A stretch of 64,000 nt of DNA from an uncultured Candidatus Saccharibacteria bacterium (GCA_964428845.1 CAYRZH010000004.1:3228-67227); one strand, 5' to 3'. Counted from the first letter of the stretch, positions 33,749 through 56,963 are shown. Made by a program: numbers and translations. The notes: generated by a model from the letters alone, not told the origin.

Positions 33749-36777
<3,029 letters not shown>

Positions 36778-36891
36778 AAAAGGCGGTCACGTACCGCCAA
36801 ATTACGAGCCACCGCAACCGCGGTGCTCTTTTTTTTATATCTTCACAGCTATTTTTAGAAGTATCTTTGCGCGGCCTAGTGAATGAAGTTG

Positions 36892-36975
36892 GAACTGCGA
36901 TACGAGAACATGATGGATATATTTATATCCCTGTGCTGAAGTGATTTACCCCACCACACTTATCACTATATTTTA
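36892..36975 (+). repeat. R1: copy 1 of a ~90-nt paralogous promoter/leader repeat (ggaactgcgatacg ... tttaccccacc-N9-cactatatt)
   Basis: ~75% identical to 38088-38181. Contains a -35/-10-like TTTACC-N16-TATATT. Downstream ~250 nt are weakly similar to the sequence downstream of R2. Confidence 0.55.
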
Positions 36976-37291
36976 CAAAATTTACAGTTCAACTTTGAAT
37001 TTAAACAAAAGAAAAGCGACACCCTAGAGTGCCGCCAAATTTCCTTTGTTAACTTTTACGTCCACACCTCACTGTTGAGGTAGTTAACTAGCTTTACGCG
37101 CTAAACCAATTTGGAAATATCCATATGTCCCCACATGGAACTGGTTCAGTTGCAAGGTTTGGTCATTGAGGAGCTACCCTCAGGACATCCCCTAGCAAGA
37201 TACTGCTCTGGGTATAGGCTAGCATAAGCTATTATTTTTGTCAAGTGTTCGTAATAATGGGAGTATACTAACTTGATCTTCATCATTGAAT

Positions 37292-37956: not shown

Positions 37957-38087
37957 GGCGAAAGTATACCAGTACTAAGGATTAAATTCACTTCCATTTT
38001 AAAGGTATTCGGGTTGGAACCAAAAAATCCTTATGGTTAAAGGATTTAGTGGTTAAAAAACTGTTGGCGCGGACTGGTGGACAACGT

Positions 38088-38181
38088 GGGAACTGCGATA
38101 CGCAACCATAATGGTCATATTTACATTCCTGTCCTCCAATCTACATCGTAATTATACCCCACACCTCTCGTCACTATTTAT
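38088..38181 (+). repeat. R2: copy 2 of the paralogous promoter/leader repeat, upstream of the second NYN gene
   Basis: Aligns with R1 (ggaactgcgatacg..atatttacattcctgt..ataccccacacc..tcactattta). Followed by a ~100-nt leader ending in the hairpin ccccagc..gctgggg plus TTTT (38253-38285), about 30 nt before the NYN start. Confidence 0.55.
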
Positions 38182-38313: not shown

Positions 38314-38910
38314 ATGAACACTATCTTGGTCATAGACGGAGAGAATTTTAAAGGCAAAGTCAAAGCCGTTTTTAAGGATGAGGGCAAGGAAAAACCTGTT
38401 TGGAACGAATATGATTTCAAAGGACTTTTCGATAAAGTTCTATCAGGAATCAAGATAACTAGAATGGTTTTTTATTTCGCTCGTATCAAAGAGCACGAAA
38501 ACAGTAAAGAGAAATCTCAACAACTTATTGAGGAACAACGGCTTCTCAAGACACATCTAGAGACACAGGGGTTTGAAGTTATTTTGAGCGGTCGAGTACG
38601 TGGACAGATGGAGACAGGTAGAGACGGCAAACAAGTTCTAATCTTCAAGGAAAAAGGTGTCGATGTAAAAATCGCAGTTGATATGGTTAGTCTTTCGTGC
38701 GACAAGAAAGTGAAGGAAATAATACTCGCCAGTTCTGACTCTGACCTACAACCAGCAATTAAAGAGGTGCGTGATAGAAAAGTACAGTGTATATATCTTG
38801 GTTTTGAGACACAACCAAACAAAGGAATGACATTTACAACAAACAGAACAATTTTAATAAGAAACTCTGAAATCTTAGAATTTGAAAAAGCTCAACAAAA
38901 GCTCATTTAG
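38314..38910 (+). CDS. NYN (LabA-like, PIN-fold) domain protein, paralogue
   Basis: LVIDGENF and SSDSDL motifs. 198 aa. Divergent from the first NYN gene. Confidence 0.65.
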   Translation: MNTILVIDGENFKGKVKAVFKDEGKEKPVWNEYDFKGLFDKVLSGIKITRMVFYFARIKEHENSKEKSQQLIEEQRLLKTHLETQGFEVILSGRVRGQMETGRDGKQVLIFKEKGVDVKIAVDMVSLSCDKKVKEIILASSDSDLQPAIKEVRDRKVQCIYLGFETQPNKGMTFTTNRTILIRNSEILEFEKAQQKLI

Positions 38911-39937
38911 TAATTATCCCAGTGCCATCCAGTGTTTCCAAAAGAAACTTAACCTCCTCTTGTAACTTTTTGGCATTTCCGTGTTTTAAAAGCCCCAAAT
39001 AAGATTGGACCGTTTCATGATTGCCATTCTTTACCTTAATACCACGGAACATTCTTTTTTTTGTTGTAGTGCGTATAACCCTATGGTCTGTAAAGTGGAC
39101 CCAACCTAAAAAATCAACCCCCGAAGCAACAGTGTTTATAGATATTTTATTCGGGTGAAGTTCCAAGTGTAATTTGGACCAAAGAAAATCGCTTATGTTT
39201 GGCACAATACTTTCAAGCCACTTTTTATCCTTTGAAAAAATCACGAAATCGTCGGCATAACGAATATAATGTTTCGCCTTAATTTTATGCTTCACAAACT
39301 GGTCAAATCTATTCATATAGATATTCACAAAAAGTTGAGATGTTAAATTACCCAAAGGAAGGCCAACTCCTTCTGCTGTTGAATGAAAACTGCCGACAAC
39401 TTCTGATATAAGCCATTGAATATCAATATCTAATATGTGATTTTTAATGATTTCGATAAGTACAGAGTGGTCAATGCTCGCAAAGAACTTTCGTATATCA
39501 CATTTTAAAACCCACACAGTCTTAATGTGATTTTCTGATACTTCATATGAAAAATCACGGAATGCATTGAGTGCTTTGTGCATACCCTTACCTAGCCTGC
39601 ATGAATAGGAATGTGCAGTAAAAGTTTTATCGAAAAATGGGTAGAGTATCCGATATATAGCGTGATGAAGTAGTCTGTCTCTTACTTTTGCTTTATGTAT
39701 ATTTCTTGGCTTTGGGTCAGATATATTAAACGCTTGATATGGAGAATGTTTATATCCTTTGCTTGCAAGGTCTTTGTGGAGTGTGATGATATTTTGCATT
39801 AGATTTCGCTCAAACTCTTGCACGTCTTTTCTATACCGTTTTCCGCAAACAAATTCACCCCACGCCTCGAGTAGATTTTCGATGGATATTATATTGCTGT
39901 ATTGGTGAGTTAGTGTTATCTTCTTCATGCAATGCAA
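38903..39937 (-). CDS. diversity-generating retroelement (DGR) reverse transcriptase
   Basis: RT motifs including YADDFVIFS. From memory of DGR RT sequences, GLPLGNLTSQLFVNIYMNRFD matches the [IVL]GxxxSQ variant of motif 4 that replaces QGxxSP in this clade. SYSCRLGKGMHKA lies N-terminal to it. 344 aa. Confidence 0.85.
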   Translation of the reverse strand: MHCMKKITLTHQYSNIISIENLLEAWGEFVCGKRYRKDVQEFERNLMQNIITLHKDLASKGYKHSPYQAFNISDPKPRNIHKAKVRDRLLHHAIYRILYPFFDKTFTAHSYSCRLGKGMHKALNAFRDFSYEVSENHIKTVWVLKCDIRKFFASIDHSVLIEIIKNHILDIDIQWLISEVVGSFHSTAEGVGLPLGNLTSQLFVNIYMNRFDQFVKHKIKAKHYIRYADDFVIFSKDKKWLESIVPNISDFLWSKLHLELHPNKISINTVASGVDFLGWVHFTDHRVIRTTTKKRMFRGIKVKNGNHETVQSYLGLLKHGNAKKLQEEVKFLLETLDGTGIITK

Positions 39938-39995
39938 ACTATGAAGACCCCCCCAACGGGTTTTACCGCTTTTACAGAGGTTAAAAGAGGTCTAC

Positions 39996-40325
39996 TTGTT
40001 GTGGTATGGATATTACCAAACATTACCGAAGCTACACAGACACTCACTTGGTTATAGAATTGACACTCTTTTCGTTGAAAATATAGAAGCAATATCAATT
40101 GCGAGTTTTTTGTCGAAAGAAGAAAAACATCCGTGGGTTCGACTGGCTATAAGAAAAGTAGACACTCTGAAAATACTTCTAATGGTCTTGTGGGAAACTA
40201 AATCAATAGATAACAAAAAGTATATAGCATTGTCGGTAAAAATAGACGAGATAGGAAAAATGCTTGGCGGTTGGAATGGTCAACTCTCTAAACAAAACTC
40301 TCCCATAAAAGTGGGAGAGAAATGA
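39996..40325 (+). CDS. avd: DGR accessory variability determinant (Avd, four-helix-bundle family); encoded on the strand opposite to the RT, TR and target
   Basis: 109-aa basic protein whose pattern ...LGYRIDTLFVENIEAISIA...IDEIGKMLGGW matches the Avd/four-helix-bundle family. Sits between the RT and the TR. Confidence 0.7.
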   Translation: MLWYGYYQTLPKLHRHSLGYRIDTLFVENIEAISIASFLSKEEKHPWVRLAIRKVDTLKILLMVLWETKSIDNKKYIALSVKIDEIGKMLGGWNGQLSKQNSPIKVGEK

Positions 40326-40331
40326 AGTGAT

Positions 40332-40461
40332 TTGCGACGAACGAAAACGAAGCGGTTGTTGCCATTCCAGAAGTTGTCAGGGTTGCCGTTGTTGCCATTG
40401 AGCCAACGCTCATCGTTGTCGTGTTCGACATTGAACACGTTGAGGTTGCCGTTCGAGTCAG
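40332..40461 (-). repeat. DGR template repeat (TR), ~130 nt
   Basis: Aligns base-for-base with the 3' end of the target gene. Minus-strand sense is AAC/AAT-rich (NGNLNVFNVEHDNDERWLNGNNGNPDNFWNGNNRFVFVRRK in the VR frame). Confidence 0.9.
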
Positions 40462-40820
40462 TTTTTGTACAGGGTGTCATCCATGTCACCACCCTTTGAA
40501 TACTCTCGGGGTTGTATCGTATTCGGCATCGTAATGCCCTAACACCCTATACCAAGTATCTTCATTTTTTTGAAGTGTCTACATACACCACTCTATCCAA
40601 AACCATGGTCGTGGATATTCTCGGTGTATGGATACTGGATTCGGTAGCAAGAAACCTTAATCTCTTGCATATTCACCTACTACCGTCCAGTATTGTATCA
40701 AAATATATAAAAAGAAGCCCCACACATTGCTGTGCAGGGCTGGAGTTGTACGCGTATCTCCAAAGCGTGAAGGACCAAGTTCCAAGGGTCCAAAAGACCC
40801 GAGGTCCAGAGGTCCAAGTG

Positions 40821-41444
40821 CTACTTGCGACGAACGAAAACGAAGCGGCCGAAGCCATCCCAGAAGTCGCCAGGGTCGCCGTCGTCGCCATCGAGCCAAC
40901 GCCCAACGTCGTCGCGTCCGACAACGAACACGCTGAGGCTGCCGTCCGAGCCAGCGATGGGCTTCATAGCAACGATGAGCCACTCACCCTTCGGCTGGTC
41001 CGCATACTGCAAACGCAGTTGGGGACCGACTTCTGCAGGACAAGGGTCAAGACCGAGTTTGTCGGCCTTGGCTTGAATGTCCAAGAGAGTTGCTCCGTCC
41101 TCGAAGCCGAGTTCAGCAACAGAAACGTTCACGAGCTCCACGTCCATCGCGGTCTCGCTCGCCGTGAAGGCGGGCTTGCCGAGGATGTCGTTGCCCCAGT
41201 CGCCGATTTTCATTCCCGCCGCCTTGATGGCTTTGCGGAAGTCGTCGGCGGTCTTGAGCCCTGTGCCGAGCTTCAAGGTCTTCCAGACCTTCAAATCGGT
41301 CGTGGCTGACGCAGGCGGACAGAGATTGCTGAGGAACTTCTTGAGGCCCCTCGGGTTATCAATCCATCCCTGCATCACGTTCCCATCCATGTCGGGCAGG
41401 TTTTCCGAGATGCGAGCGATGAGTTTTGCTGTCTGCTTATCCAT
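40821..41444 (-). CDS. DGR variable target protein (207 aa) with C-terminal VR; likely C-type-lectin/FGE-like fold
   Basis: The C-terminal 43 aa are encoded by the VR (..SDGSLSVFVVGRDDVGRWLDGDDGDPGDFWDGFGRFVFVRRK), with a GFGRFV ending resembling a CLec-type VR. Gene GC is elevated. Confidence 0.8.
   Translation of the reverse strand: MDKQTAKLIARISENLPDMDGNVMQGWIDNPRGLKKFLSNLCPPASATTDLKVWKTLKLGTGLKTADDFRKAIKAAGMKIGDWGNDILGKPAFTASETAMDVELVNVSVAELGFEDGATLLDIQAKADKLGLDPCPAEVGPQLRLQYADQPKGEWLIVAMKPIAGSDGSLSVFVVGRDDVGRWLDGDDGDPGDFWDGFGRFVFVRRK
40825..40954 (-). repeat. DGR variable repeat (VR)
   Basis: ~130 nt aligned to the TR. I counted ~24 mismatches by eye, and every one is at a TR adenine on the minus strand; no other position differs. 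The 3' ~25 nt (cgcttcgttttcgttcgtcgcaa) are identical, IMH-like. Hairpin gggtc-tttt-gaccc lies ~25 nt downstream. Confidence 0.9.
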
Positions 41445-41505
41445 GGCGGTTTTTCCTTTCTAAGGTTTTCGCCAGTTTTCGTTTTGCCAGAGGACTCACC
41501 ACATT

Positions 41506-41559
41506 GGTAGTCATAGCCAGAAAACCTCATGTTTTTAAGGGCTTTTGGCTATGACTACC
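41506..41559. promoter_or_regulatory. 13-bp perfect inverted repeat with a 28-nt spacer, upstream of the DGR target gene
   Basis: ggtagtcatagcc ... ggctatgactacc, ~60 nt upstream of the target start on the minus strand. Confidence 0.3.
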
Positions 41560-41599
41560 TTGCAAGTAACACTATCAAAGAACTGGGCTTAGTATACAC

Positions 41600-41791
41600 T
41601 TAAAATATACTTCTGTCAATATCAACAAATAGCGCTACTTTTCTCGGTGTTTTTTTTCGTTTATTATCTTCAAAATAAAAGTCTAGAATGAGTTCGGCCA
41701 TGCCATATAGGGATTCTCTGATTTTTAGCACTTCCTCATCGGTTAGAGTTTCGTCATTCAACAATTCCCTGCATTTTTCTACTGAAAGCAT
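41600..41791 (-). CDS. hypothetical small protein
   Basis: 63-aa ORF, acidic/helical. No homology recognised. Confidence 0.3.
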   Translation of the reverse strand: MLSVEKCRELLNDETLTDEEVLKIRESLYGMAELILDFYFEDNKRKKTPRKVALFVDIDRSIF

Positions 41792-41823
41792 AGTAATTTT
41801 GATTTACCCCACCCTGCTCACCA

Positions 41824-42315
41824 CTATTGTTTCAAAATGGTATTTATCTTTTCCAAAAGCTCGCTTGTGCTGAATCGTCCATGATTTTCTAATCTCAATA
41901 ACGGTAACCCCGCATTTTTAAGCACTCGTTCGACCTCACCATCTCGGTCTTTGCGGTCTTGTCTCTCGTGCGTTCGGTCATCAAGTTCTATTGCAAGCTT
42001 TGGTGAGATATATGCTTTATCACACAAAACAAAATCTACTGATTTTTGGCTTATATGTCGAAATGCTCCCTTCCAGTTTTGACCAACTACTTTGTTGTCT
42101 ATAATTGAAGGAAGGTGAACCTGTGGAAAAACGTGATATTTTTCTCCCACAGCGACAACCAGAGCGTTATAGCATTCATGTTCTGCCCGAGACATAAAAA
42201 AGTTCTTTTGTTTGTACTGATATTTTTTTGGCTCATCTCTTCCACCACGAAAAATCCCAAGAATAATAATCGCTACTACCATGACCACGACAATTATAAT
42301 GATTGGACCTAACAT
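41824..42315 (-). CDS. membrane-anchored DUF2726-like (restriction-endonuclease-fold) protein
   Basis: N-terminal TM segment followed by a ~130-aa domain resembling DUF2726/NERD-type nuclease-fold proteins (VDFVL...ELDDRTHER). Confidence 0.4.
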   Translation of the reverse strand: MLGPIIIIVVVMVVAIIILGIFRGGRDEPKKYQYKQKNFFMSRAEHECYNALVVAVGEKYHVFPQVHLPSIIDNKVVGQNWKGAFRHISQKSVDFVLCDKAYISPKLAIELDDRTHERQDRKDRDGEVERVLKNAGLPLLRLENHGRFSTSELLEKINTILKQ

Positions 42316-42862: not shown

Positions 42863-43354
42863 TTAATTATTATTTATCTCTGCATTAAAATGCTTATCTG
42901 GGTGTTTTGCAAGCATCTCTTTGAGTTTATTGAAATTAGCATATTCATCTAAATTAAGGGGTGGCATCATAGGGCACCGATGATTTTTATCCCCTTCACA
43001 AGGATTGATTACAGCGTCTTTTGCCACACCATCAACAATTACGGTCTTACGCACAAAATCCCATGTCGCTTGGTCTAAAATCTCCATAATAAAAAATGGT
43101 CCCTCTGCTGGAAAATCGCTTCTGTTATCCTTCTTTAATTCTCCTTCAAGATTTACGAGATACCAATTCGCAAACAGGACTTCGTTGAAGATGGCCAAAT
43201 GGAAATCTCCTATAAGCATCTGTGCCGTCTTGGTTCTATATTTGAAAGTAATGTAGCTATCTTCCCCAGATGGAAACTTTCTCACTAAAACAAAAACACC
43301 ACGTTTGTATCCTGTAACGGTCGTATCGGTTGTTTTTTGGTTCTTTATTTCCAT
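42863..43354 (-). CDS. hypothetical protein
   Basis: 163-aa ORF. No recognisable motif. Confidence 0.35.
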   Translation of the reverse strand: MEIKNQKTTDTTVTGYKRGVFVLVRKFPSGEDSYITFKYRTKTAQMLIGDFHLAIFNEVLFANWYLVNLEGELKKDNRSDFPAEGPFFIMEILDQATWDFVRKTVIVDGVAKDAVINPCEGDKNHRCPMMPPLNLDEYANFNKLKEMLAKHPDKHFNAEINNN

Positions 43355-46038
43355 TATTTTTTGTATAGTCTCACAACTTCACCAAAGTTCTTTGCTTTAT
43401 TATCATTCCACTCTTCCTGTCTTATATATAAAGCTTTATAGGTCATCCTGCTCTGCCGATTATTTACATCCTCACACCACAGGACCAATCTTTCAAACTT
43501 AAGTTTGTCATCTTCTCCTTCTCTCCCCTTGGTCTCAATAATAAATACATTTTTATCGTCTTGCTTTACGAAAAAATCAGGGTAATAAGTGGCTATAAAA
43601 CCTTCTTCGTTTTTATATTCTATTCGGAGAGCATTTGCTTCTTTGTTTTTGAAATTCTTAGCAAACGAAACAATATCATCACACTTCTCAAGAAAATCCG
43701 AAAAGGTGAGCTCAAAATCACTATCACCGACAATCTTATTGAATACTGACTTCTTAGGTATTAGGTATGACTTATCATTCACTACGAACGGTCTGGCATC
43801 GCTAATCTTTATATAATTCCTTATTTCGGCATCACCTTTATCTTCGACCGTAAGCTCGTTGATACCTTTCTTAAATACATCCTTTATCAGCTTTATATAC
43901 TCAACTTCGGAGAGGTTCCTTAGAATGTTGAGGTCTGAAAGATTTATAGGGTCGTCAAACATATACTCCTCAACGAAGTCTTTGACCTTCCCGAACAAAA
44001 TGTCGTAGCAACCGAACAATCTCAATTCTCTCATTATGGCTTGAGCAAAGAATCCAACAACACTCTGATAATTGGGCTCAATGTCTCCAGACAAGATGGT
44101 TGTATGGTGCACTTTCTCATCTACAACATCTTTGAAAACTATTTCTCTTTTTTCCTGTTCAGTGAAAGTCTTAATTTTAACTTTCTTATTTCCAAACCTA
44201 GAAACATCCAATTCAGCTAAATTCTTATACTCTCTTTGTATCCTTGGAGACAACACAGGAATTTCAATATCAAGTTTTTCTATGTCTTTTTTAGGATTTT
44301 CTTTATCAACTTCTACGACCATTGGAGTAATCGGCTTAGTTCCTCTACCCATCAACCGCTTCTCAAGCAATACACCTTCACCCCTAATAGACTCAACAAA
44401 GTCCATAAATGCTGGCGTTCCGATAACACTCACATATTCTTCAACATCCTCTCTTCCAAAGAACATTCTTCTCAAGCCTCGGCCAAGTGTCTGTTCTGGC
44501 AATATTTTAGAGTCTGCGGCATAGGGGCGTAGTCCCACAATTGTAGTAACATTTTTCACATCCCAGCCTTCCTTGAGCATCATCACTGAAACGATGACCT
44601 TGAATGGGCTCTCCCAGCTATCTATGTTGTTGGCTTGTTTTCTTAACACCTCCAGTTCTTCCTTGTTTCTTCCAGAAACATTTTCTGAAATTTCACCGCT
44701 TTTGTTTGTGTGTATGGTCAGGACCGCACCTTTTAGGTCTGCGAAACTCGTCTGAATATACTCAGCCACTTCATCACAATTCTGCGTATCATCAGTCATT
44801 ATGAAAAGGATTGATTTCTTGCCAGCAGGTTCAAGTTCTTTGTATGTTTTTCTCCACTCTTCAATACCAAGATTTATATAGTCTCTATACTTTTCACTAA
44901 ACAAGGTACTCTGATTTGGTTTCAATTTCCCTCGGCTCGCCTCATCAGGAACAACAGGTGTTTTAACTATTCTCTGATGAATTGCCTCCACTAGAGGATA
45001 GTCAGAAATTGTCTGCACAAATATGGACCCATCATTTTTCTTAGGAGTAGCTGTAACATCAAGTTGCAACGATAATTTTGTACCCTTTTGCTTCAGTTTA
45101 TTATCTATATCTCTTATAGATTTTAACCAAGCATTTTCTTCGTGAATATGGTGAGCCTCATCATTTATAACAACCAATTCATCAATATCTCTTACTATCA
45201 TTCCCAAATCAACTGTTGAGTCGCTAGTTTTTGTTACTGGTTTGTCACCCAAGAAATAGTCCGAGGCATCAGAGTCGTCGGCACTTGCCTCTCTAACATC
45301 ACTTTCAAAAACTCTATGAATGTTGGTTAGAAAAATATTGCCCGTGTCAGAAATTCCCCTTAGGTCGTCTTGGAGGTGTAAGGTTATTTGAAAATCATCT
45401 TTCCAATTCTGTCCTTGGTAACCGTTGTCTGGTAATACTGGGTCTGTAAAAAATATCTTCAATCCTTCAAAGTCATTTCTAATCCTTTCAAAAACAATAA
45501 CATTGGGTGTTATAAGAAGAAAATTTTTTGCCAAGCTTGAATTTGGTTCATACAATTTATGAAAATACGCCCAAGCGACAAGTAAACTCATTATTTTGGT
45601 CTTACCTGCACCAGTAGCCATTTTGATAACAAACCGAAGCCAGTCTTCTGTGAACATTCCAGCACTCAATACACCTGTAGAGTTATATCTAATTAAGTCG
45701 TGTTTATCTTTGACTTTAGCAACCTCATAGAGCCATATAACGGTCTCTATGGCTTCTCTTTGAGCAAAGTAGTAACGAAATGTATAAGTGGACCCATCCT
45801 TGTCATAGAGAATATGCTCGTCCTTAAACCACCAATTCAGAAGAGTCTTTGAGGTATCGCTTGCTCCTTCATAATTTTTATCTCGCCAACCTTGGACCTT
45901 TTTTCTTAAGTCTGCAACTAGAGGTGGCAGAAGTTTGTCGTAACCCTTCTCTCTCAAGTCCTCGTCAGCAGGGAACCATCTGATAGCTGGGTCCAGAATT
46001 GCATATGGGTCACGTGGAAAATTTTTATGCAGTGCCAT
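43354..46038 (-). CDS. res: type III restriction enzyme Res subunit (SF2 helicase + endonuclease)
   Basis: Helicase motif I ATGAGKT, motif II DEAHH and further SF2 motifs. 894 aa. Immediately downstream of the mod gene. Confidence 0.8.
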   Translation of the reverse strand: MALHKNFPRDPYAILDPAIRWFPADEDLREKGYDKLLPPLVADLRKKVQGWRDKNYEGASDTSKTLLNWWFKDEHILYDKDGSTYTFRYYFAQREAIETVIWLYEVAKVKDKHDLIRYNSTGVLSAGMFTEDWLRFVIKMATGAGKTKIMSLLVAWAYFHKLYEPNSSLAKNFLLITPNVIVFERIRNDFEGLKIFFTDPVLPDNGYQGQNWKDDFQITLHLQDDLRGISDTGNIFLTNIHRVFESDVREASADDSDASDYFLGDKPVTKTSDSTVDLGMIVRDIDELVVINDEAHHIHEENAWLKSIRDIDNKLKQKGTKLSLQLDVTATPKKNDGSIFVQTISDYPLVEAIHQRIVKTPVVPDEASRGKLKPNQSTLFSEKYRDYINLGIEEWRKTYKELEPAGKKSILFIMTDDTQNCDEVAEYIQTSFADLKGAVLTIHTNKSGEISENVSGRNKEELEVLRKQANNIDSWESPFKVIVSVMMLKEGWDVKNVTTIVGLRPYAADSKILPEQTLGRGLRRMFFGREDVEEYVSVIGTPAFMDFVESIRGEGVLLEKRLMGRGTKPITPMVVEVDKENPKKDIEKLDIEIPVLSPRIQREYKNLAELDVSRFGNKKVKIKTFTEQEKREIVFKDVVDEKVHHTTILSGDIEPNYQSVVGFFAQAIMRELRLFGCYDILFGKVKDFVEEYMFDDPINLSDLNILRNLSEVEYIKLIKDVFKKGINELTVEDKGDAEIRNYIKISDARPFVVNDKSYLIPKKSVFNKIVGDSDFELTFSDFLEKCDDIVSFAKNFKNKEANALRIEYKNEEGFIATYYPDFFVKQDDKNVFIIETKGREGEDDKLKFERLVLWCEDVNNRQSRMTYKALYIRQEEWNDNKAKNFGEVVRLYKK

Positions 46039-46039
46039 A

Positions 46040-48217
46040 TTAAATTTTGACTTCTATTACTCTGGTAGTGTCATTGCCAAAAATATCCACAACTTTCACT
46101 GCTACTTTATATGTCCCCTTCGGCATTTCCCTTGAACCAGAAACCAGCTCAAGGTTCCTGTTCTTTTTTGTTCTAAAACTTTGCCATTCATTATCAAAGA
46201 TATAGTCTCCAGTCCAAATCTCTTTTTCCTTGCCATCCTTGACTACTCTTACAATTTCCTTGCGGTCCGCAAAGTTAAAATCCACAGCCCAATAATCAAC
46301 CCAGTCACTCCATTTTTTAGTCAAAATTTCCCTTGAAACAAGTTCTGTTTTCTTGTCTTTACTTATTTTGATTACCTGACCATTTTCAATAACAATCTTA
46401 GAGCCCCCAGCCCGTAAATCTTCCTCAATTTCACCCGTATTGTCTTGGTTGTAAAAAACTGAAAAATCAGACAGTTCGATAGAAAGTTCTTTATTATTTC
46501 CTTTGCCTTTTACTATTGGTTTAACTTCAATATATGCAACATCATAAAATTTCACTTGGCCCTTTTCTACTGCTCTCTTATCAAATACTTCCCTCGGAAT
46601 TATCTTAAAAACAATGTCCAGCCCATCATCTTTGTATTCTTGAAAATCAAGACCCATCTCATAATCAAATCCGAGCACATCAATCTTCGTAATACCCTTC
46701 GTCTTACATTCTTTAGCAATACTTTTTATAAGTTGGTGGGATACAGGTAGATTTACAGGACCAACCGCTACTAACCTATCCCTCTTCTTTCCTGTGATAG
46801 TAGTAAATGATTCAATGGGTTCAGCTTTATATGCAGAAAGAATTAAGCTAATAAATTCCTTCTCTTTCCTCTCTGCTTGCTTTGCTTTCTGTTCAGCACG
46901 AAGGTCAGTGTTTATTGAGAGGAAATTTTCCCGTTCATATCTACCTACGTTCAAAATCTCAAACGCCCTAAAGTTCTTTTTTTCTTTCTTAAGTTGTCTC
47001 TGAACATCTATCAACCTCTTTCTTGATGTGTGTATCCCAAACTTTCCAAGGTCGGTCCCTATCCATTTTCTACCAAGTTTTTCGGCAACAGCTAGGGTGG
47101 TCCCCGAACCACAGAAGAAATCAGCCACCAAATCTCCTTCTTTTGAAGATGCTTCCACAATTCTTCTTAGTAATGCTTCTGATTTTTGTGTCGGGTAATC
47201 AATGTTTTCTGGTGATTTTGGGTCTACTTTTTTTATATACCAACTTGAACCAACAACAGCTCCTTTTACATCAAAAATAACGTCATCGTCTCTCGGCTCT
47301 CTTTTATTGTCTTTAATAAACCTATCTAAGTAAGTAGTAAATCTAATATCATCTTTTGGATAGTATTTACCGTATATTTTATTTTCAACAAGATATTTTC
47401 CCCACCTCTTAAAATTAACCTGTTCTTCCGAATTATCCTCGTGTTGCCGATTAAAAAAATCGTTATTACTTTTTTTATAAAAGAGAATTAAATTATGCCG
47501 CCTTGGAAAATATGTTTTTGGTTCAACCCACGAACCCTGATAAGACCAAACGATTTCATTACGATAAGAATCTTTACCAAAAATCTCGTCCATAATCAAT
47601 CGCATATAGCTATTAACTCTGTGGTCACAATGCACATAAATACTTCCGTCTTCTGCAAGCAAATCGTGCATCAATTTCAATCGCTCATAAATCATCGCTA
47701 TAAAACTATCTGCACCTTTGCCCCAAGTGTCACGATAAGCAATTTCTTCTATAACGGATGGCTTTTTAGTGAAATTTTCTTCGTCATCACCCTCACCAAT
47801 CTTAATATCCATAGAAAAATCGGCTCCAACGTCAAAAGGTGGGTCAATGTAAATCAATTTTAAACCTCCTTGTGCATCTATTTCTTTTCTAAGAGGACCG
47901 TTCTTAAGCGAGGAGAGAATGAGCTTGTTATCTCCCCAAATAAGTTTGTTGGTCCAGCCAGTGATTTGTCTTCCCTCAGTATCAAAAAGTGAATCCTGCA
48001 ATCCAATCTTTCCTTCGCTTCTGGGTTCATCTATCTGTTCTATTGTTTGAAATGGCAAGACGACATTCGTAACTTCATTTGTTTTTCCATTCCATAAAAG
48101 CTCTACATCTCTGTCATCTTTGAATAGTAAAAAGCGATACTTATCTGGCAGTGGTTTCCCAGCCTCCAAGTATTTCATCACGTCTCGTTTTTCATTGTCG
48201 GATAGGTGTAGAGGCAT
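46040..48217 (-). CDS. mod: type III R-M Mod DNA methyltransferase (N6-adenine/N4-cytosine, beta class)
   Basis: DPPF catalytic motif ([10 protein letters not shown]) precedes the AdoMet motif FFCGSGTT (permuted order). 725 aa. Confidence 0.8.
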
Positions 48218-48610: not shown

Positions 48611-50875
48611 ATGAGCCAATTATTTGAACGTTTTTCATCAAAAGAAAACCTTAAGAAAGCTTTTTTATACCTTAGAGACGAGGCTAATGAGAGCTCGTTG
48701 CCCCTAGACCCAATTTGGAGACCCACTATAAGTGCTGTGGCGAATCTTGGTGATAAATTTTTTGAATCGCTACAAAATTACTTGCGGAATGAAAAATATA
48801 ATCCCGACAAAGCTAGCTATATCTATGCCGACAAAGATAATATGGGAGTGCGACCTGTTTGCGTATTTTCGGTAATAGACAGAATTATTTTCCAAGCATT
48901 ACTTAATCCGTGGGTTTTGGGGGATATTATTGATAAGAAGTTATGCAATGCCTGCTTTGGTAATCGTATTGCAGGAAATGAACTCTTTCTAAAAATATAC
49001 AAAAATCAATGGGCAGAATTTTGTGACAAACAAGTAGAGGCTTACAAAAAAGGATTGGTGTGGAGAGTGGAATTTGATATACAAACTTTTTATGAAAATA
49101 TACACATAGAAACTCTTTTAGAAACTATCAGAGAGGAGTTCGGGGTCAATGATTCTAATATTCTTGGGATTCTTGAACATCAATTAAGAACTTGGTCTGA
49201 AACTAGAACCATGTGCGGTATCCCCCAAGGACCCAGAGCCTCTCATATTTTAGCGAATGCATATCTATTTCCCCTAGATACTCTGATTGATAATCAAAAA
49301 GGAGATGGTGGGTTTGAATTTTTCCGTTATGCGGACGATATAGTAATAATGGCTAAGGATTCAGATAAAATTAATCGTATTGTTTCTGAAATTCAATTAT
49401 TTGTGAGGAAATTTAATTTGAAACTAAACGATAAAACAAGACTAGAGAAACTTAGGGATACCAAAAAGATAGAGGAGCTGAAATTCTATAATCCATACGG
49501 AGAAATCAATGAGACATCTAAACAAAAGGTTGAAAAAATAGGTAAAAAATTACCTAGCATATTTCGTAAGCTCAAAAGAGGAGAGGACTTGTTGAAAACT
49601 GAATTGAGCGGACTAAGATATTTTCTGAAAGCCAAGGGGGGCATTGAAAACTCAAAACTTCTTGATGAACTAATTTACCTAATACCCCGCAAACCATCTT
49701 TAGTAAATTTGATTTGCCAATATATAGGCTATTACTTCTCGGGTCAAAATGAAATCGAGGAAGGAGAGATTTCTTATGAGAAACCAACTAAGGAGCTCAA
49801 AGAAAAGTACGGAAAGGTGTGGAATATCTATGTTAATAATTCTCTTTCTGAGTGGGCCAAATTTTCCCTTTTGAAAGTCTTATCCGCCCCTTTGTTTGCA
49901 ATCTCACACAAGGGCTTTAGAAATGAAATCGATAAGATTGTTATTAGCCCCAAAACAAAATTCTTGAGACCGATAGCATTTTTTTACAAAGGGTATGTCA
50001 GAGATTTTTCTCTGGCCGAAGAAGCAAAAAAAGGTCATTCTTTGGATAAAATAGAATTAGGATTTAGTTTGGATGATATTAAAAGGCAGATAAGAAATTC
50101 TGAAACTGAATCCGAAAAAGCAACCTATTATTATTTTTCAGTTTACCTAAAAGGATACGAAGACAAAGACGTAATTAAGAATTTAGTGTATGAAGCTCTT
50201 ACTTCAGAATCCCTAGAGATACAAACGATTGGCATCTTTCTTGTGGAAAAACTCTACCGAGTTCCAGTTCCAGTATTGGTAAAAAGACACCCCCATACCC
50301 TAGAAGGAAAAAATCTGAAAATAAATATGAAGCATACCGATGCTTGGGATATTGATTTATCAGAAAAGAATATAGCAAGTCTAGTTAGGTTATATTTCAA
50401 GCTTTCACCACCAACCAAGCCATCTTCAAAAATTAAAGATGACTTTCTTACATCTGAAGGAAAAATTGCTCCAAACAAACTTAATCAATCATTCGGTATT
50501 CCTATTCCATTACCAGTTAGAATCGTGAAATCTACCAGCGAAAAAAAGAAAACAAAATCTTCTACAAAACTTTTTCTAAATCAAACTGGAGATTTATGGA
50601 GAGACCCTAAAGAAAAATACTGTTATGGAATGGGAGAAAAAAGTGATAGACATAAAACTGTCCGTTACCTTTTTCAGAATAAGGGCTACTCTGACACATC
50701 AGTAATTTCGTCCCAATTTGAAAGTAAGAGCAAAAAATCAATACGAACAGAAATAGGTAAGTTAAATAAAAAAATTACAGGTTCATTAAAACTGAAATCA
50801 AAAGTAATTCAAGGTAGAAAAGAGAGTGGATACAGAATCAATCCTGTATACTCAATTTCTATAAAAAAAGAGTGA
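48611..50875 (+). CDS. reverse transcriptase with a ~450-aa C-terminal extension (defence-associated RT of unassigned group; Abi/DRT/UG-like)
   Basis: RT motifs: VRPVCVFSVIDRIIFQALL (motifs 1/2), EFDIQTFYENI (A), IPQGPRASHILANAYLFPLD (B'), FFRYADDIVIM (C), FNLKLNDKTRL (D/E). No msr/msd-like inverted repeats upstream. The C-terminal half has no recognisable domain. Confidence 0.75.
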   Translation: MSQLFERFSSKENLKKAFLYLRDEANESSLPLDPIWRPTISAVANLGDKFFESLQNYLRNEKYNPDKASYIYADKDNMGVRPVCVFSVIDRIIFQALLNPWVLGDIIDKKLCNACFGNRIAGNELFLKIYKNQWAEFCDKQVEAYKKGLVWRVEFDIQTFYENIHIETLLETIREEFGVNDSNILGILEHQLRTWSETRTMCGIPQGPRASHILANAYLFPLDTLIDNQKGDGGFEFFRYADDIVIMAKDSDKINRIVSEIQLFVRKFNLKLNDKTRLEKLRDTKKIEELKFYNPYGEINETSKQKVEKIGKKLPSIFRKLKRGEDLLKTELSGLRYFLKAKGGIENSKLLDELIYLIPRKPSLVNLICQYIGYYFSGQNEIEEGEISYEKPTKELKEKYGKVWNIYVNNSLSEWAKFSLLKVLSAPLFAISHKGFRNEIDKIVISPKTKFLRPIAFFYKGYVRDFSLAEEAKKGHSLDKIELGFSLDDIKRQIRNSETESEKATYYYFSVYLKGYEDKDVIKNLVYEALTSESLEIQTIGIFLVEKLYRVPVPVLVKRHPHTLEGKNLKINMKHTDAWDIDLSEKNIASLVRLYFKLSPPTKPSSKIKDDFLTSEGKIAPNKLNQSFGIPIPLPVRIVKSTSEKKKTKSSTKLFLNQTGDLWRDPKEKYCYGMGEKSDRHKTVRYLFQNKGYSDTSVISSQFESKSKKSIRTEIGKLNKKITGSLKLKSKVIQGRKESGYRINPVYSISIKKE

Positions 50876-51538: not shown

Positions 51539-53737
51539 ATGAATTTATCAAACATTACGATTAGAGAATACTTAACCGAGAAAGGTATACCTTTCCGTGA
51601 GAGCGGCAGAGAAATTATTACCAAGTGCCTTTTTAACGATTGCGACAGAGACAGCAAAGGCGATGAAGCTCACCTTTATTTCAGTACAGAGACAGGACAA
51701 TATGACTGTAAGAAGTGTGGCGAGAAAGGCAACCTTTTCACACTTGCAAAACATCTTGGCGATACTGGTCCGAAGGCACGCAAAGCAAATGCTTTTAATG
51801 CCGAGCTCGTGGAGAAATGTCACCTTGCCCTGCCATCTTATATCCGAGAGTACCTGCACAAACGAGGACTTACAGATGCCGTTATAGACCAATGCAAGCT
51901 TGGCTATGGGCAGTTCTACCGCAAGCCGTGGATTACTATCCCTATCAAGGACATATACGGCAACTATTCATTTTTCAAATTGAGACAGGACCCTGCGTTT
52001 GGTAATGATAAAATCACATACCCGAAAGGAGCCGAGGCCCAGCTCTACGACTGGGATGCCTTGAAAAGCCCTGATAGCAGGCTTATCGTTTGCGAGGGCG
52101 AGCTGGACCGATTACTTCTCCTCTCAAAAGGCGTGCCAGCGATAACATCTACACACGGAGCGATGACATTCAAGGATGAGTGGGTAGAAAAGGTAGGAAA
52201 AGGTAGGAAAATCTATATCTGTTATGACAACGATGACACTGGTAAAAAGGGGTCTGAAAGAGTAGCAAAAATGGTGGAAAAAGGTGGGTGTGAGACATAT
52301 ATCATTACCCTTCCAATAGAGGTTGGTGAAGCGGGCGACATCACAGATTATTTTGTAAAACTGGGAGGGTCCGTAGATGATTTGTTTGCCAGATATGCAA
52401 AGCCCTATCCCGAGCGAATTGATACCACCCAATTTTCTCAAATGATTTCGGCACAACTCCTAGATACGCTTGGGCTTACCATCAAATATGATGCCGAAAA
52501 CAAGTTGGCAACATTCCTATGCGAACTCTCCGCCTATACTGAAAGCTCACAATTCAATATCAGTTATAATGCACCTTCTTCAACTGGGAAAAGTTATATT
52601 CCTACCGAAATTGCTCGACTGTTTCCACAAGACGATGTTATGGAGATTGCCTATTGTTCACCCACGGCTTTTTTCCACGATGTTGGGCAGTATGATAAAG
52701 AAAAAAATCAACAACTTGTAGACCTCTCACACAAGATACTCATTTTCTTGGACCAACCACACACCGAGCTCCTTACCCGTCTCCGACCACTTCTTTCCCA
52801 CGACAAAAAGGAAATTGCCATAAAAATTACAGATAAAACCCAGAAGAATGGAACCAAGACAAAGAACATACTACTCCGTGGCTATCCGTCAGTCATTTTC
52901 TGCACGGCAGGTCTTCGCATTGATGAGCAAGAAGCAACACGGTTTTTACTCCTTTCGCCCGAGGTGAATCAGGAAAAAATACAGCAAGGTATCAGTGCTA
53001 CCATACGCAAGGAAGCAGATAGTGAGAATTTTGTGAGTTGGCTTGAAGAAAATCCAAACCGAATACTCCTCAAAGAACGTATCCGTGCCATCAAGTTAGA
53101 GAATATAAAGGAGATAAATATCGCATCGCCAGAAAAAATTGAGGAGAGATTTTTGGAGAAAAATAAGACACTTAAGCCACGACACCAGCGAGACATCAAA
53201 CGCCTTCTGTCGCTCATCAAATCCCTTGCCCTGCTCAATGTTTGGTGGCGAGATAGGAGCGGATCTACCATTACCGCAAACGAGGACGATGTCAACGAGG
53301 CGTTTAAGCTCTGGGATAAGATTTCTGTCAGCCAAGAGCTGAACCTGCCACCTTATATCTACAATCTTTATAAAGAGGTCATTTTGCCAGCGTGGGAAAT
53401 GAAAAACGACAGTTCTGGAAAACTTGAAAAAGAATACTTCGGCAAGCTCGGTCTTTCCCGACAAGAAGTTCTTGAGAAACACTTTGCAGTCTATGGCAGG
53501 ATGCTCGACACTCACCAGCTTCGCCAACAAATACTCCCAATGCTTGAAACAGCAGGGCTTATTGTGCAGGAGCAGGACCCAAGCGACAAACGCAAAATGA
53601 TGATTTTCCCTTCCTCCCTTTATCAACTCTCTGAAGTGAAGAGAAATAGTGAAACGGGCGGTGGGGTAAAAAACACAGAGCAAGAAAACAATAGTGAGAT
53701 GAGTGAGGGGAAAATTCCAGATTTAGGAGTTTCCTGA
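51539..53737 (+). CDS. phage/plasmid-type DNA primase (CHC2 zinc finger + TOPRIM) with a large C-terminal domain
   Basis: CHC2 zinc ribbon (CLFNDCDRD...CKKCGEKG), TOPRIM EGELD...DNDDTGKKG, and a ~400-aa C-terminal helical region. Confidence 0.75.
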   Translation: MNLSNITIREYLTEKGIPFRESGREIITKCLFNDCDRDSKGDEAHLYFSTETGQYDCKKCGEKGNLFTLAKHLGDTGPKARKANAFNAELVEKCHLALPSYIREYLHKRGLTDAVIDQCKLGYGQFYRKPWITIPIKDIYGNYSFFKLRQDPAFGNDKITYPKGAEAQLYDWDALKSPDSRLIVCEGELDRLLLLSKGVPAITSTHGAMTFKDEWVEKVGKGRKIYICYDNDDTGKKGSERVAKMVEKGGCETYIITLPIEVGEAGDITDYFVKLGGSVDDLFARYAKPYPERIDTTQFSQMISAQLLDTLGLTIKYDAENKLATFLCELSAYTESSQFNISYNAPSSTGKSYIPTEIARLFPQDDVMEIAYCSPTAFFHDVGQYDKEKNQQLVDLSHKILIFLDQPHTELLTRLRPLLSHDKKEIAIKITDKTQKNGTKTKNILLRGYPSVIFCTAGLRIDEQEATRFLLLSPEVNQEKIQQGISATIRKEADSENFVSWLEENPNRILLKERIRAIKLENIKEINIASPEKIEERFLEKNKTLKPRHQRDIKRLLSLIKSLALLNVWWRDRSGSTITANEDDVNEAFKLWDKISVSQELNLPPYIYNLYKEVILPAWEMKNDSSGKLEKEYFGKLGLSRQEVLEKHFAVYGRMLDTHQLRQQILPMLETAGLIVQEQDPSDKRKMMIFPSSLYQLSEVKRNSETGGGVKNTEQENNSEMSEGKIPDLGVS

Positions 53738-55117: not shown

Positions 55118-55281
55118 TGCTATAATGACCACGTTGACCCAGTTTAAGCAAGATAGTGTGCCAAAGGTTTTTTTATTGCAAAATGGAACCCGAGAGGGGC
55201 GTTCTGCCAGCCATTCTGCAATCCTTTGGATTACATTATCAAGCTGGGTCAACCAGAGCGTCCCTTTCGGGTTTTTATATG

Positions 55282-56928: not shown

Positions 56929-56963
56929 CAGGCGAGTGCTCTAACCAGTTGAGCTACGACCGC
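56890..56963 (-). tRNA. tRNA-Asp (anticodon GUC)
   Basis: Manual fold: acceptor GCGGUCG/CGACCGC, anticodon loop CUGUCAC, T-loop UUCAAGU. Confidence 0.8.

Follow-up and report, generated by a model that had tools for sequence, protein, structure and literature searches.

The window analysed here, a 64-kb stretch of DNA (64,000 nucleotides) from an uncultured Candidatus Saccharibacteria bacterium, contains a locus in which a small target gene ending in a variable repeat (VR), a spacer, a template repeat (TR), an inverted avd gene and a reverse transcriptase (RT) gene follow one another, with target, TR and RT on the minus strand and avd on the plus strand (Table 1). The sequence supports the presence of all the defining parts of a diversity-generating retroelement (DGR), and these fit one another: an RT and an Avd, a TR/VR pair whose VR forms the 3' end of an ORF, and a hairpin that follows this repeat. 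The locus is almost certainly a DGR of a Patescibacteria-specific clade. A first-pass annotation had described a complete DGR and a good candidate for ongoing hypervariation; the parts list is indeed full, but avd is inverted and, as assembled, has its start codon and its body in different frames, so that ongoing hypervariation is doubtful for the sequenced genotype.

Table 1. Features of the DGR locus, listed in the minus-strand direction from the target promoter-like site to the RT gene; positions are those of the window.
Feature	Position	Strand	Remarks
Promoter-like site upstream of target	41591..41619	-	TTGACA-17-TATACT, 11/12 consensus matches; putative function
DGR target gene	40821..41444	-	207 aa; GC 0.59, GC3 0.74
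VR (variable repeat)	40825..40954	-	last 43 codons of target; ungapped 130-nt match to TR
Three-tier imperfect GC hairpin, post-VR	40772..40815	-	core GGGTC-TTTTG-GACCC
Intrinsic-terminator-like hairpin and T-run	40706..40741	-	terminator scan; would end target transcript
Extended -10-like element TGATACAAT	40692..40700	-	conserved block, 5' edge of alignment A3
Predicted DGR RNA, ~395 nt	40290..40686	-	covariation; TR lies inside
P1 hairpin of DGR RNA	40684-40637	-	
P2 stem of DGR RNA	40628-40584	-	
P3 closing helix of DGR RNA	5' arm 40567-40553, 3' arm 40334-40320	-	
P4-P6 core of DGR RNA	40552-40467	-	
TR (template repeat)	40332..40461	-	36 A; 13 Asn codons in VR frame
Terminal stem-loop CTCTCCCAC-TTTT-ATGGGAGAG	40298..40319	-	immediately 3' of TR; terminator scan
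U-run stretch TTTTGTTT	40297-40290	-	directly after terminal stem-loop
avd	39941..40325	+	ATG 39941, C7 tract, body 39954-40325 in another frame
Poly-C tract (C7)	39948..39954	+	in 5' coding part of avd; candidate slipped-strand switch
DGR RT	38903..39928	-	341 aa from ATG 39928; 344 aa from TTG 39937

The RT, whose start was placed according to the N-termini of its relatives, contains an RVT_1 domain (2e-25) with a YADD catalytic motif. Its best solved relative was the Bordetella-phage DGR RT (8ub7, E 2e-44), whereas group II intron, retron and DRT RTs gave values of 3e-23 or weaker. The DGR-type motif 4 previously recognised was confirmed by the alignment of LGNLTSQLFVNIY with IGSLTSQLFANVY of 8ub7; the RT shares with bRT an I/LGxLTSQLFxNxY motif, the DGR variant of motif 4 being [IL]GxxxSQ, and by these sequence comparisons it is of the Bordetella-phage bRT type.

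TR and VR were compared in an exact, ungapped alignment of 130 nt at an offset of 493. All the differences fell on adenines of the minus-sense TR, as had been claimed, although their number was 22 instead of the approximately 24 counted by eye; none of the non-A positions differed. On the minus (coding) strand the TR-to-VR spectrum comprised 18 A>G, 4 A>T and no A>C, and 14 of the 36 TR adenines were unchanged. The Asn richness attributed to the TR in the VR frame was borne out (13 of 42 codons; 10 AAC and 3 AAT), with 35 of the 36 adenines placed at codon positions 1-2 and spread over 22 codons; the 22 differences were likewise confined to codon positions 1-2, and none of the 19 changed codons was synonymous. 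The homology stops abruptly at both ends, diverging from the next base onwards (G-TAG-CACTTGG for the VR vs A-TCA-CTTCATT for the TR). The 3' end of about 25 nt formerly regarded as IMH-like is in fact identical over its last 24 nt, but it does not define an IMH: this stretch has no adenines save the final AA and is therefore uninformative in that respect, and no IMH/IMH* difference could be defined inside the repeat from the TR/VR alignment. Family-wide, 91% of the TR/VR mismatches were located at adenines. Two related loci with 95.8% identity (L022 and L128) showed 23 differences in the last 135 nt, 19 of them at TR-A sites, vs 25 differences across the other 396 nt.

In the target protein, an N-terminal three-helix segment is joined by a linker to a domain remotely resembling C-type lectins; the VR forms the end of this domain, with the terminal pattern ..FW.G..RFVFVRRK. 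The small size and lack of a signal peptide noted earlier hold, since neither a hydrophobic N-terminal segment nor a TM segment was evident, and judging from its sequence the protein appears to be non-membrane-bound. The C-type-lectin fold is weakly suggested, as a remote likeness of the predicted model, with which Foldseek returned no significant match. The target had no Pfam match, Pfam FGE-sulfatase and DUF1566 were absent in 120 members of its family, and it showed no sequence-family match to FGE-sulfatase or to the CLec DGR variable proteins Mtd, TvpA (2y3c) and the C-terminal domain of Lcl (8q4e). The family includes at least 1,375 proteins devoid of Pfam domains, nearly all from Patescibacteria; the GC3 of the target gene is anomalously high.

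Downstream of the VR, the previously reported GC hairpin was recovered as part of a three-tier stem, its GGGTC/GACCC core lying 26 nt past the stop codon and its surroundings containing repeated CTTGG-like motifs. Taken alone, the hairpin of the window is a weak one, with a DNA fold energy of -8.1 kcal/mol and a z of -1.65; its three-tier architecture is, however, found again in 28 related loci, where the median z was -2.4, with z < -2 in 18 of them. By analogy, it may correspond to the inverted repeat of the Bordetella phage DGR, which is needed for efficient homing (PMC5758913). A GC stem with a T-run is conserved at the target-end position in the spacer alignment of relatives, and the extended -10-like element, whose family consensus is TGnTAnAAT, is on sequence grounds a putative promoter of the TR RNA.

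The alignment of 28 loci analysed with RNAalifold yielded a DGR RNA structure of 73 pairs, 52 of which had compensatory changes. Paired cells amounted to 95.8% vs 82.4% in shuffles (0/500 reached 95.8%), and to 39-52% when the partners were slid. The core model, R1, matched 76 of 80 independent loci, in every case on the strand antisense to avd, and found a single match in the window (40462-40570, 122 bits), while the RNA had no match in Rfam. Both elements of a DGR-type structured RNA around the TR, the 3' stem-loop and the flank-flank duplex, are present according to covariation and independent search, and there is very little doubt that the ~395-nt scaffold is real. The stem-loop 3' of the TR, which differs from the post-VR three-tier hairpin, is antisense to the last avd codons, is conserved with covariation, and is a candidate Avd-binding element and/or terminator of the TR RNA; no conserved structure was found beyond it. 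It agrees with a class of stem-loops that have been predicted just downstream of the TR in 207 of 278 DGRs; for DGR RNAs, those of CPR included, both an Avd-binding stem-loop 3' of the TR and pairing between upstream and downstream sequences have been described (bioRxiv 10.1101/2023.10.23.563531).

The target homologues came almost exclusively from Patescibacteria MAGs, in line with the CPR-like genome proposed earlier, and the best named matches of the IMP dehydrogenase of the window were Patescibacteria lineages. An RT and/or avd was detected nearby in 36 of 79 genome loci with target homologues. The arrangement target - TR - inverted avd - RT recurs in ~35 related genome loci, where avd, wherever found, is opposite to target and RT and follows a spacer of ~350-410 nt. 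This layout probably represents both the CPR architecture B3 of Wu et al. 2018 and DGR clade 2. [quoted passage not shown] 2021, PMC8144416). The locus resembles the Patescibacteria/CPR DGRs, among them the UVR classes of Wu et al. 2018, in the host phylum, in an avd/TR arrangement unlike that of the Bordetella prototype, and in a small target with a C-terminal VR and no TM or recognisable domain; nothing in it contradicts membership. The element is cellular, not viral, and only two relatives were found in 2.9 M viral contigs.

Compared with the BPP-1 DGR (mtd-avd-TR-brt; 8ub7-series structures), the locus shares a homologous RT with the LTSQLF motif, a four-helix-bundle Avd homologue, adenine-specific TR-to-VR transfer, a hairpin after the VR, a stem-loop directly 3' of the TR, and a duplex formed by the sequences on either side of the TR. 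In contrast to BPP-1, avd is here inverted and convergent with the TR, and consequently the stretch of RNA preceding the TR is non-coding, whereas in BPP-1 it belongs to the 3' part of avd; a long Sp-like spacer is also lacking, given that conserved structure ends with the stem-loop 3' of the TR. The two systems also differ in that the present repeat contains no IMH/IMH* mismatch, its spectrum is A>G-biased, and its target is a cellular protein of 207 aa and not a phage tail fibre.

The Avd-like gene of the first-pass annotation is real (Pfam bAvd 41.7 bits), with the qualification that it lies on the plus strand, opposite to RT, TR and target. Scores against bAvd ranged from 41.7 to 43.9 bits (cut-off 40); with one C removed, avd matched positions 4-104 of this profile and positions 1-102 of 104 of NCBIfam NF033474 (DivGenRetAVD), the latter at 57.9 bits, short of the profile's cut-off of 80. 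In the assembled sequence, the ATG frame encodes a 38-aa peptide. The avd body is an uninterrupted frame of 123 codons, 57-82% identical to its relatives, and the longest intact ORF begins at TTG 39996, the first in-frame start after the tract, and lacks most of helix 1. The C7 tract is the longest G/C homopolymer in the window and on the minus strand reads as a poly-G located 19 nt upstream of the RT ATG; this C7 allele corresponds to the OFF frame, whereas C6 or C9 would be ON.

A survey of 102 related loci (606 kb) detected C5-C13 tracts at the same avd codons in 83 loci, and tetra- or dinucleotide repeats at that site in nine others, namely (CAAT)n, (CAAC)n, (GCCA)n, (GTCA)n, (CA)n and (CT)n. 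Runs of C or G of at least 7 nt were concentrated there, with 75 of the 80 sitting at the avd site. By consensus frame, 48 loci were OFF and 35 were ON. Discrete length alleles were found on otherwise matching sequences: L103 (C10) and L140 (C11) are identical over 800 nt but for one C of the tract, as are L080 (C9, ON) and L092 (C10, OFF) over 659 nt; L024 has C13 vs C11 in L121 and L122, and pairs of tract alleles otherwise show 0-2 differences in 660-800 nt. Translations placed (GCCA)9 in the ON and (GCCA)11 in the OFF frame. Some relatives have two ATGs in two frames, and some have an in-frame TTG just past the tract that could start translation whatever the tract length. The VRs of near-identical contig pairs differing in tract length were identical, in a small sample where most were OFF.

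Tetranucleotide repeats of Haemophilus influenzae and poly-G/C tracts of Neisseria and Campylobacter are SSR contingency loci. The avd repeat resembles them in its homopolymeric or tetranucleotide make-up, in its position directly behind the start codon, in having in-frame and out-of-frame alleles that differ in tract length on otherwise identical sequence, and in the dual start codons in different frames at some loci. It differs in that contingency loci switch surface structures or restriction-modification genes, whereas avd, the putatively switched gene, encodes a cofactor of a mutagenic RT, so that the switch would act on a diversity generator. On this evidence the avd repeat would probably act as a functional on/off or dosage switch, and the tract being 19 nt from the RT start, the switched gene could be the RT and not avd. 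We lean slightly towards a broader reading, in which the avd repeat makes mutagenesis as such phase-variable in this DGR lineage of Patescibacteria by stochastically turning the RT cofactor ON and OFF, the repeat being poly-C in most lineages and, in others, a tetra- or dinucleotide repeat that evolved independently. If true, 'diversifying' cells would coexist within a population with cells whose VR is 'frozen', and a contingency locus governing a diversity generator would be a built-in answer to the question of how such hosts retain a useful variant.

The explanation as a whole, a DGR with a ~395-nt RNA scaffold and a repeat-gated avd, is in our judgement highly probable. Following the established BPP-1 scheme (Handa et al. 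2018 and 2024), the ~395-nt RNA would be transcribed on the minus strand from its own extended -10 promoter just past the target terminator. In its fold a long-range helix would join AAAUGAAGA..UUG, on the upstream side of the TR, to a strand made up of the final 3 nt of the TR and the adjoining UCACUUCAUUU, and the terminal stem-loop and U-run would come after the TR. The RT-Avd complex would bind this RNA and copy the TR into cDNA, misincorporating opposite adenines, and the cDNA would replace the VR, the recipient being marked by the three-tier hairpin. Up to 36 adenine-templated positions could thereby be varied in the face with which a small lectin-like protein binds its ligand. The production of Avd, hence mutagenesis, would be gated by the hypermutable simple repeat near the 5' end of the avd coding sequence, where slipped-strand length changes would shift the avd body into or out of the start-codon frame.

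The poly-C tract might alternatively not be a DNA switch at all, but a proline-rich linker of misassembled length, a site of transcriptional or ribosomal slippage giving constant low Avd at any DNA length, or a poly-G in the RT 5' leader that acts on RT expression. Such readings would accommodate that it encodes PPP(P) when in frame and lies so close to the RT ATG; sequencing errors and RNA-polymerase slippage readily occur in long homopolymers, short-read homopolymer lengths can be off by one, and an OFF consensus in 58% of the loci would be tolerable if slippage restored the frame. They seem unlikely, however, as neither a need for proline nor a G-rich leader explains the tetra- and dinucleotide repeats at the same site, which are moreover immune to homopolymer miscalls; outside the tract, CCC makes up only 19-38% of the Pro codons of these genes, and independent assemblies show discrete alleles with otherwise identical flanks.

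A frameshift is equally expected of a decaying element, and the locus could be a non-functional DGR in which avd suffered ordinary inactivation and the VR differences record past activity. The ATG out of frame with the avd body, its frame stopping after 38 codons, and the near-identical contigs elsewhere with identical VRs fit this view, which we consider quite improbable: the RT ORF is intact with its YADD, the avd body is uninterrupted, and the TR, VR, hairpins and RNA scaffold are all intact (R1 122 bits). Random decay, in addition, does not yield a frameshift that falls exactly in a repeat kept as such in ~90% of relatives and out of frame in more than half of them. That the TR is a degenerate duplicated fragment of the target 3' end, with ordinary divergence and an unrelated retroelement RT as neighbour, would agree with a direct duplication 493 nt away and an ORF-like frame through the TR, but is ruled out by the adenine-only pattern (22/22 differences on the adenines of one copy, p ~9e-16, hypergeometric), by the bRT-like RT and the presence of Avd, and by the same TR/VR/avd/RT arrangement with adenine bias in ~30 loci.

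This kind of DGR is already catalogued in Patescibacteria; the inverted avd with its repeat, the RNA scaffold and the target GC3 excess go beyond the first-pass annotation. The literature searched contained no description of a simple repeat in avd, of a ~395-nt covarying scaffold lying mostly 5' of the TR, or of the GC3 excess; Paul et al. 2017 in Nat Microbiol, the main paper on CPR DGRs, was outside that search.

As regards the genomic surroundings, the proximity to NYN RNase genes had been put forward as part of a meaningful combination, but these genes are not kept beside related cassettes, so no functional NYN-DGR link is indicated and the NYN neighbours are incidental. The earlier designation of the region as a defence island is reasonable, the cassette being located within an AT-rich block of ~20 kb in which a Type III restriction-modification pair and a Toprim protein are found together with another RT, of UG19-like type, and in which a large serine recombinase adjoins tRNA-Asp.

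The template and variable repeats (TR and VR) of the diversity-generating retroelement (DGR) formed the longest direct repeat detected in the region by a repeat finder, an ungapped match of 130 nt with 83% identity that stopped sharply at either end. An exact tally over the 130 nt gave 22 differences, instead of the approximately 24 counted by eye in the first-pass annotation, whose claim that only adenines differ was borne out: read in the sense of the target gene (minus strand), every one was a TR adenine substituted in the VR (18 A>G and 4 A>T), and none fell on a TR C, G or T position. Fourteen of the 36 TR adenines were kept in the VR, and the probability that 22 random differences all fall on adenines is about 9e-16. 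Translated in the VR frame the TR reads DSNGNLNVFNVEHDNDERWLNGNNGNPDNFWNGNNRFVFVRR, rich in Asn codons (n = 13) as had been noted; 35 of the 36 TR adenines occupied codon positions 1 and 2, and every altered VR codon (19/19) resulted in an amino-acid change. The last 24 nt of both repeats were identical, close to the ~25 nt described as IMH-like, but this identity is uninformative about an IMH, since the only adenines in the stretch are its final two bases. Across the family, 91% of the TR/VR mismatches were at adenines (A>G 61%, A>T 23%, A>C 16%); a strong A>G bias was observed both in the window and family-wide. No second TR or second target was found within the 64-kb window. VR differences among near-identical contigs were discarded as a direct proof of activity, since the VRs were identical in the few pairs at hand.

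The closest solved relative of the DGR reverse transcriptase (RT) was the Bordetella-phage DGR RT 8ub7 (E = 2e-44), whereas group II intron, retron and DRT enzymes matched at 3e-23 or weaker. The RT segment LGNLTSQLFVNIY, singled out beforehand as a DGR-type motif, aligned to IGSLTSQLFANVY of bRT, and the suspected avd (accessory variability determinant) gene was recovered by its profile, diverging from the RT start and converging on the TR. Among the related genome and metagenome loci (L001-L159), 79 genome loci held a target homologue, and the 36 of these with an RT and/or avd within 6 kb had an invariant order: target, a spacer of ~350-410 nt, TR, avd on the opposite strand, and RT. [quoted passage not shown] Wu et al. 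2018 (PMC5758913) attribute 90% of CPR DGRs to the B3 architecture, one of the subtypes with a different order and orientation of avd and TR, and Roux et al. 2021 (PMC8144416) describe a DGR clade 2 confined to Patescibacteria, with targets devoid of TM or other domains. The proposed CPR-like genome was also upheld, the best named matches of the window IMP dehydrogenase being Patescibacteria lineages (55-60% identity), as were nearly all the genomes with target homologues. The TR/VR pattern, the bRT-like RT, the Avd homologue, the recurrent architecture and the agreement with the literature establish that the locus is, as first annotated, a real DGR, and one of a known Patescibacteria lineage; as a DGR instance it is therefore ordinary and of little added value; catalogues of CPR DGRs whose targets are small and lack domains go back to 2017. 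A phage association was ruled against by the presence of only two relatives in a viral collection of 2.9 million contigs.

About half of the target homologues (L003, L004, L006, L009, L012-L016 and others among the genome loci) lacked an RT, avd and TR in the surrounding 6 kb. The ends equivalent to the VR showed only 66-81% identity with the TR of the DGR in the same MAG and many non-A mismatches, which gives no support to trans-targeting by that DGR; with so poor a match, these genes resemble paralogues that are not, or no longer, diversified.

Features of the DGR cassette and the surrounding AT-rich block
Feature	Position	Strand	Remarks
RT	38903-39928/39937	minus	RVT_1 match
avd	ATG 39941; body 39954-40325	plus	Pfam bAvd
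Poly-C tract, C7	39948-39954	plus	First codons of avd
Stem-loop CUCUCCCAC-UUUU-AUGGGAGAG plus UUUUGUUU	40319-40290	minus	Directly after long-range helix
Long-range helix, AAAUGAAGA..UUG with last three TR bases and flank UCACUUCAUUU	40567-40553 with 40334-40320	minus
Predicted RNA scaffold, ~395 nt	40290-40686	minus	Embeds TR; own extended -10; covariation
TR	40332-40461
Extended -10, TGnTAnAAT	40700-40692	minus	Conserved in relatives
Intrinsic terminator	40741-40706	minus	3' of three-tier hairpin
Three-tier stem	40772-40815
Target	40821-41444	minus	ORF without family match
VR	40825-40954
Two NYN genes, DUF2726 protein, response regulator			AT-rich block; near cassette
Type III restriction-modification pair	43354-48217		AT-rich block
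Second RT, 754 aa, unrelated	48611-50875	plus	PADLOC best match RT_UG19, 3.5e-55; adjoins Type III pair
Toprim protein	51539-53737		AT-rich block
Large serine recombinase	55156-56928		Abuts tRNA-Asp (56889-56963); block ends here

As assembled, the frame opened by the avd ATG runs through the C7 tract, the longest G/C homopolymer of the window, and stops after 38 codons, the avd body being in another frame (OFF, as opposed to ON when the body is in frame with the upstream start codon). The first in-frame start of the body is TTG 39996, with the loss of most of helix 1. Deleting one C in silico gave MKTPQRVLPLLQRLKEVYLLWYG...; the Pfam bAvd match then began at profile position 4 rather than 15, and the match to NCBIfam DivGenRetAVD covered positions 1-102 of its 104. 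The comparison was extended to 102 loci (33 genome and 80 metagenome loci, minus the truncated ones). A C5-C13 tract was present at exactly this site in 83 of them, with a mode of 9-10, and nine further loci carried (CAAT)7, (CAAC)11, (GCCA)9-11, (GTCA)13, (TCAG)5, (CA)16 or (CT)6 instead. Of the 80 G/C runs of at least 7 nt found in 606 kb of related loci, 75 were at the avd site, and CCC was a minority among the proline codons elsewhere in the related genes. Relative to the conserved upstream start, 48 loci had an OFF consensus frame and 35 an ON frame. Independent assemblies differed in the tract and hardly elsewhere: L103 (C10) and L140 (C11) had no other mismatch in 800 nt, L080 (C9, ON) and L092 (C10, OFF) none in 659 nt, and L024 (C13) and L121-L122 (C11) were near-identical outside the tract. 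Likewise, (GCCA)9 was in frame and (GCCA)11 out of frame. In some loci a second ATG opens another frame, which makes two of the three tract lengths ON. The closest relative of the window at the tract, L111, was ON (MKLPPPQRLLPLLQ...).

Taken from sequence comparison, this pattern has the hallmarks of a simple-sequence contingency locus, and we lean slightly towards reading the avd repeat as a phase-variation switch of DGR mutagenesis across the lineage, in which the window would be OFF on account of its repeat length. In the Bordetella system, according to PMC6182149, Avd is needed together with the RT for cDNA synthesis, and hence turning avd on or off would do the same for mutagenesis. The tract may act on the RT instead, or as well, since on the other strand it is a poly-G lying 19 nt ahead of the RT ATG. 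The pattern across the 102 loci speaks against an assembly error as the source of the C7 frame break. No report linking DGRs with phase variation, simple repeats, homopolymers or frameshifts was found in the literature searched, Paul et al. 2017 not being covered. With ON and OFF alleles and a repeat in about 90 of the 102 relatives, the phase-variation reading offers a concrete hypothesis for DGR regulation in cells, one that existing metagenomic reads could address through the relation between tract length and VR heterogeneity.

The GC hairpin reported after the VR proved to be the core of an imperfect three-tier stem; it was weak when taken alone (z = -1.65), and the three-tier architecture was found again in relatives. 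At 40765-40820 (minus strand), and at the same place in relatives, four to six CTTGG/CTTAG/CTTTG-like pentamers spaced ~8-10 nt apart make up the internal loops and stems of this hairpin, the pattern being conserved and the sequence not. On the 3' side of the extended -10, a non-coding stretch of the VR-TR spacer was strongly conserved. For the predicted scaffold, RNAalifold (28 loci) gave 73 pairs, 52 of them with compensatory double changes; 95.8% of the cells were paired, versus 82.4% in column shuffles (0/500 reached 95.8%), and pairing fell to 39-52% when the partners were slid by 1-3 columns. The long-range helix closes over the P4-P6 core and the TR, and the terminal stem-loop runs antisense to the final codons and stop region of avd; no Sp-like conserved pairing of the TR 3' end with the 200 nt downstream was found past this stem-loop. 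When the genome loci were used to build a covariance model of the core, it had hits in 76 of the 80 independent metagenome loci, in each case antisense to avd, and a single hit in the window. Rfam searches (E<=1 for the region, gathering score for the whole window) returned only tRNAs and no family for the TR-flanking RNA. Handa et al. (bioRxiv 2023.10.23.563531) predicted, for 207 of 278 DGRs with CPR ones among them, a stem-loop bound by Avd immediately downstream of the TR and a duplex between upstream and downstream sequence; the stem-loop and long-range helix of the window fit these classes of elements. In contrast to those elements, the window scaffold is mostly 5' of the TR and non-coding, the latter because avd is inverted, and this covarying RNA lends itself to comparison with the Bordetella RNP model.

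The 207-aa target had no family assignment in Pfam, NCBIfam, PADLOC or PDB sequence searches. At least 1,375 homologues of ~200 aa were found, nearly all in Patescibacteria MAGs and none with a Pfam domain; their alignment revealed a conserved core (residues ~50-165) and a hypervariable C-terminus of ~43 residues. The family gave a confident model without signal or TM segment, and the window gene has a strong putative promoter. In its leader, downstream of this promoter-like site and ahead of the start codon, is a 22-bp inverted repeat (41506-41559, 86% complementary); a long hairpin as a conserved leader element was discarded, a comparable one occurring in only 2 of 32 loci. GC3 was 0.73-0.74 for the window target against 0.33 for RT and avd, and over 48 loci 0.67 against 0.40, with the target higher in 47 (Wilcoxon, p = 1.7e-9); RT GC3 followed host GC (r = 0.83), and target GC3 was largely independent of it (r = 0.40). 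The excess is not simply adenine avoidance, since A and T were both depleted. The fold of CPR VR classes is not known according to Wu et al. 2018, and for Roux et al. 2021 whether CPR targets are genuinely non-membrane 'remains to be established'; family size, model, absence of signal and TM segments, promoter and odd GC3 recommend this target for studies of structure and binding.

Around the cassette is an AT-rich block (~37-57 kb) with a GC content of ~0.35, versus 0.45-0.53 in the flanking housekeeping genes (guaB, purA). The defence-island setting initially proposed is reasonable, with the Type III pair, the UG19-like RT, the Toprim protein and the serine recombinase all inside the block, which is likely a mobile or defence island that became integrated, with the DGR as part of it; no att repeat flanking it was identified. 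The NYN genes are indeed adjacent, but the significance attached to their proximity did not stand: no immediate neighbours were kept beside related cassettes, so that the adjacency is incidental, and the NYN, DUF2726 and response-regulator genes were rejected as functional partners on the same grounds. A repeat of ~125 nt occurs twice (36855-36979 and 38053-38178, 73-76% identity), and its last 38 nt (GATTTACCCCACC..CACTAT) a third time (41800-41837); the copies bracket NYN1 and the block formed by NYN2 and the DGR, and could represent the edge of a cassette or have a regulatory role. The host lineage is usually described as poor in nucleotide biosynthesis; guaB, encoding the IMP dehydrogenase, and purA, which at 505 aa is unusually long, adjoin the island at 33749-36777 on the plus strand.
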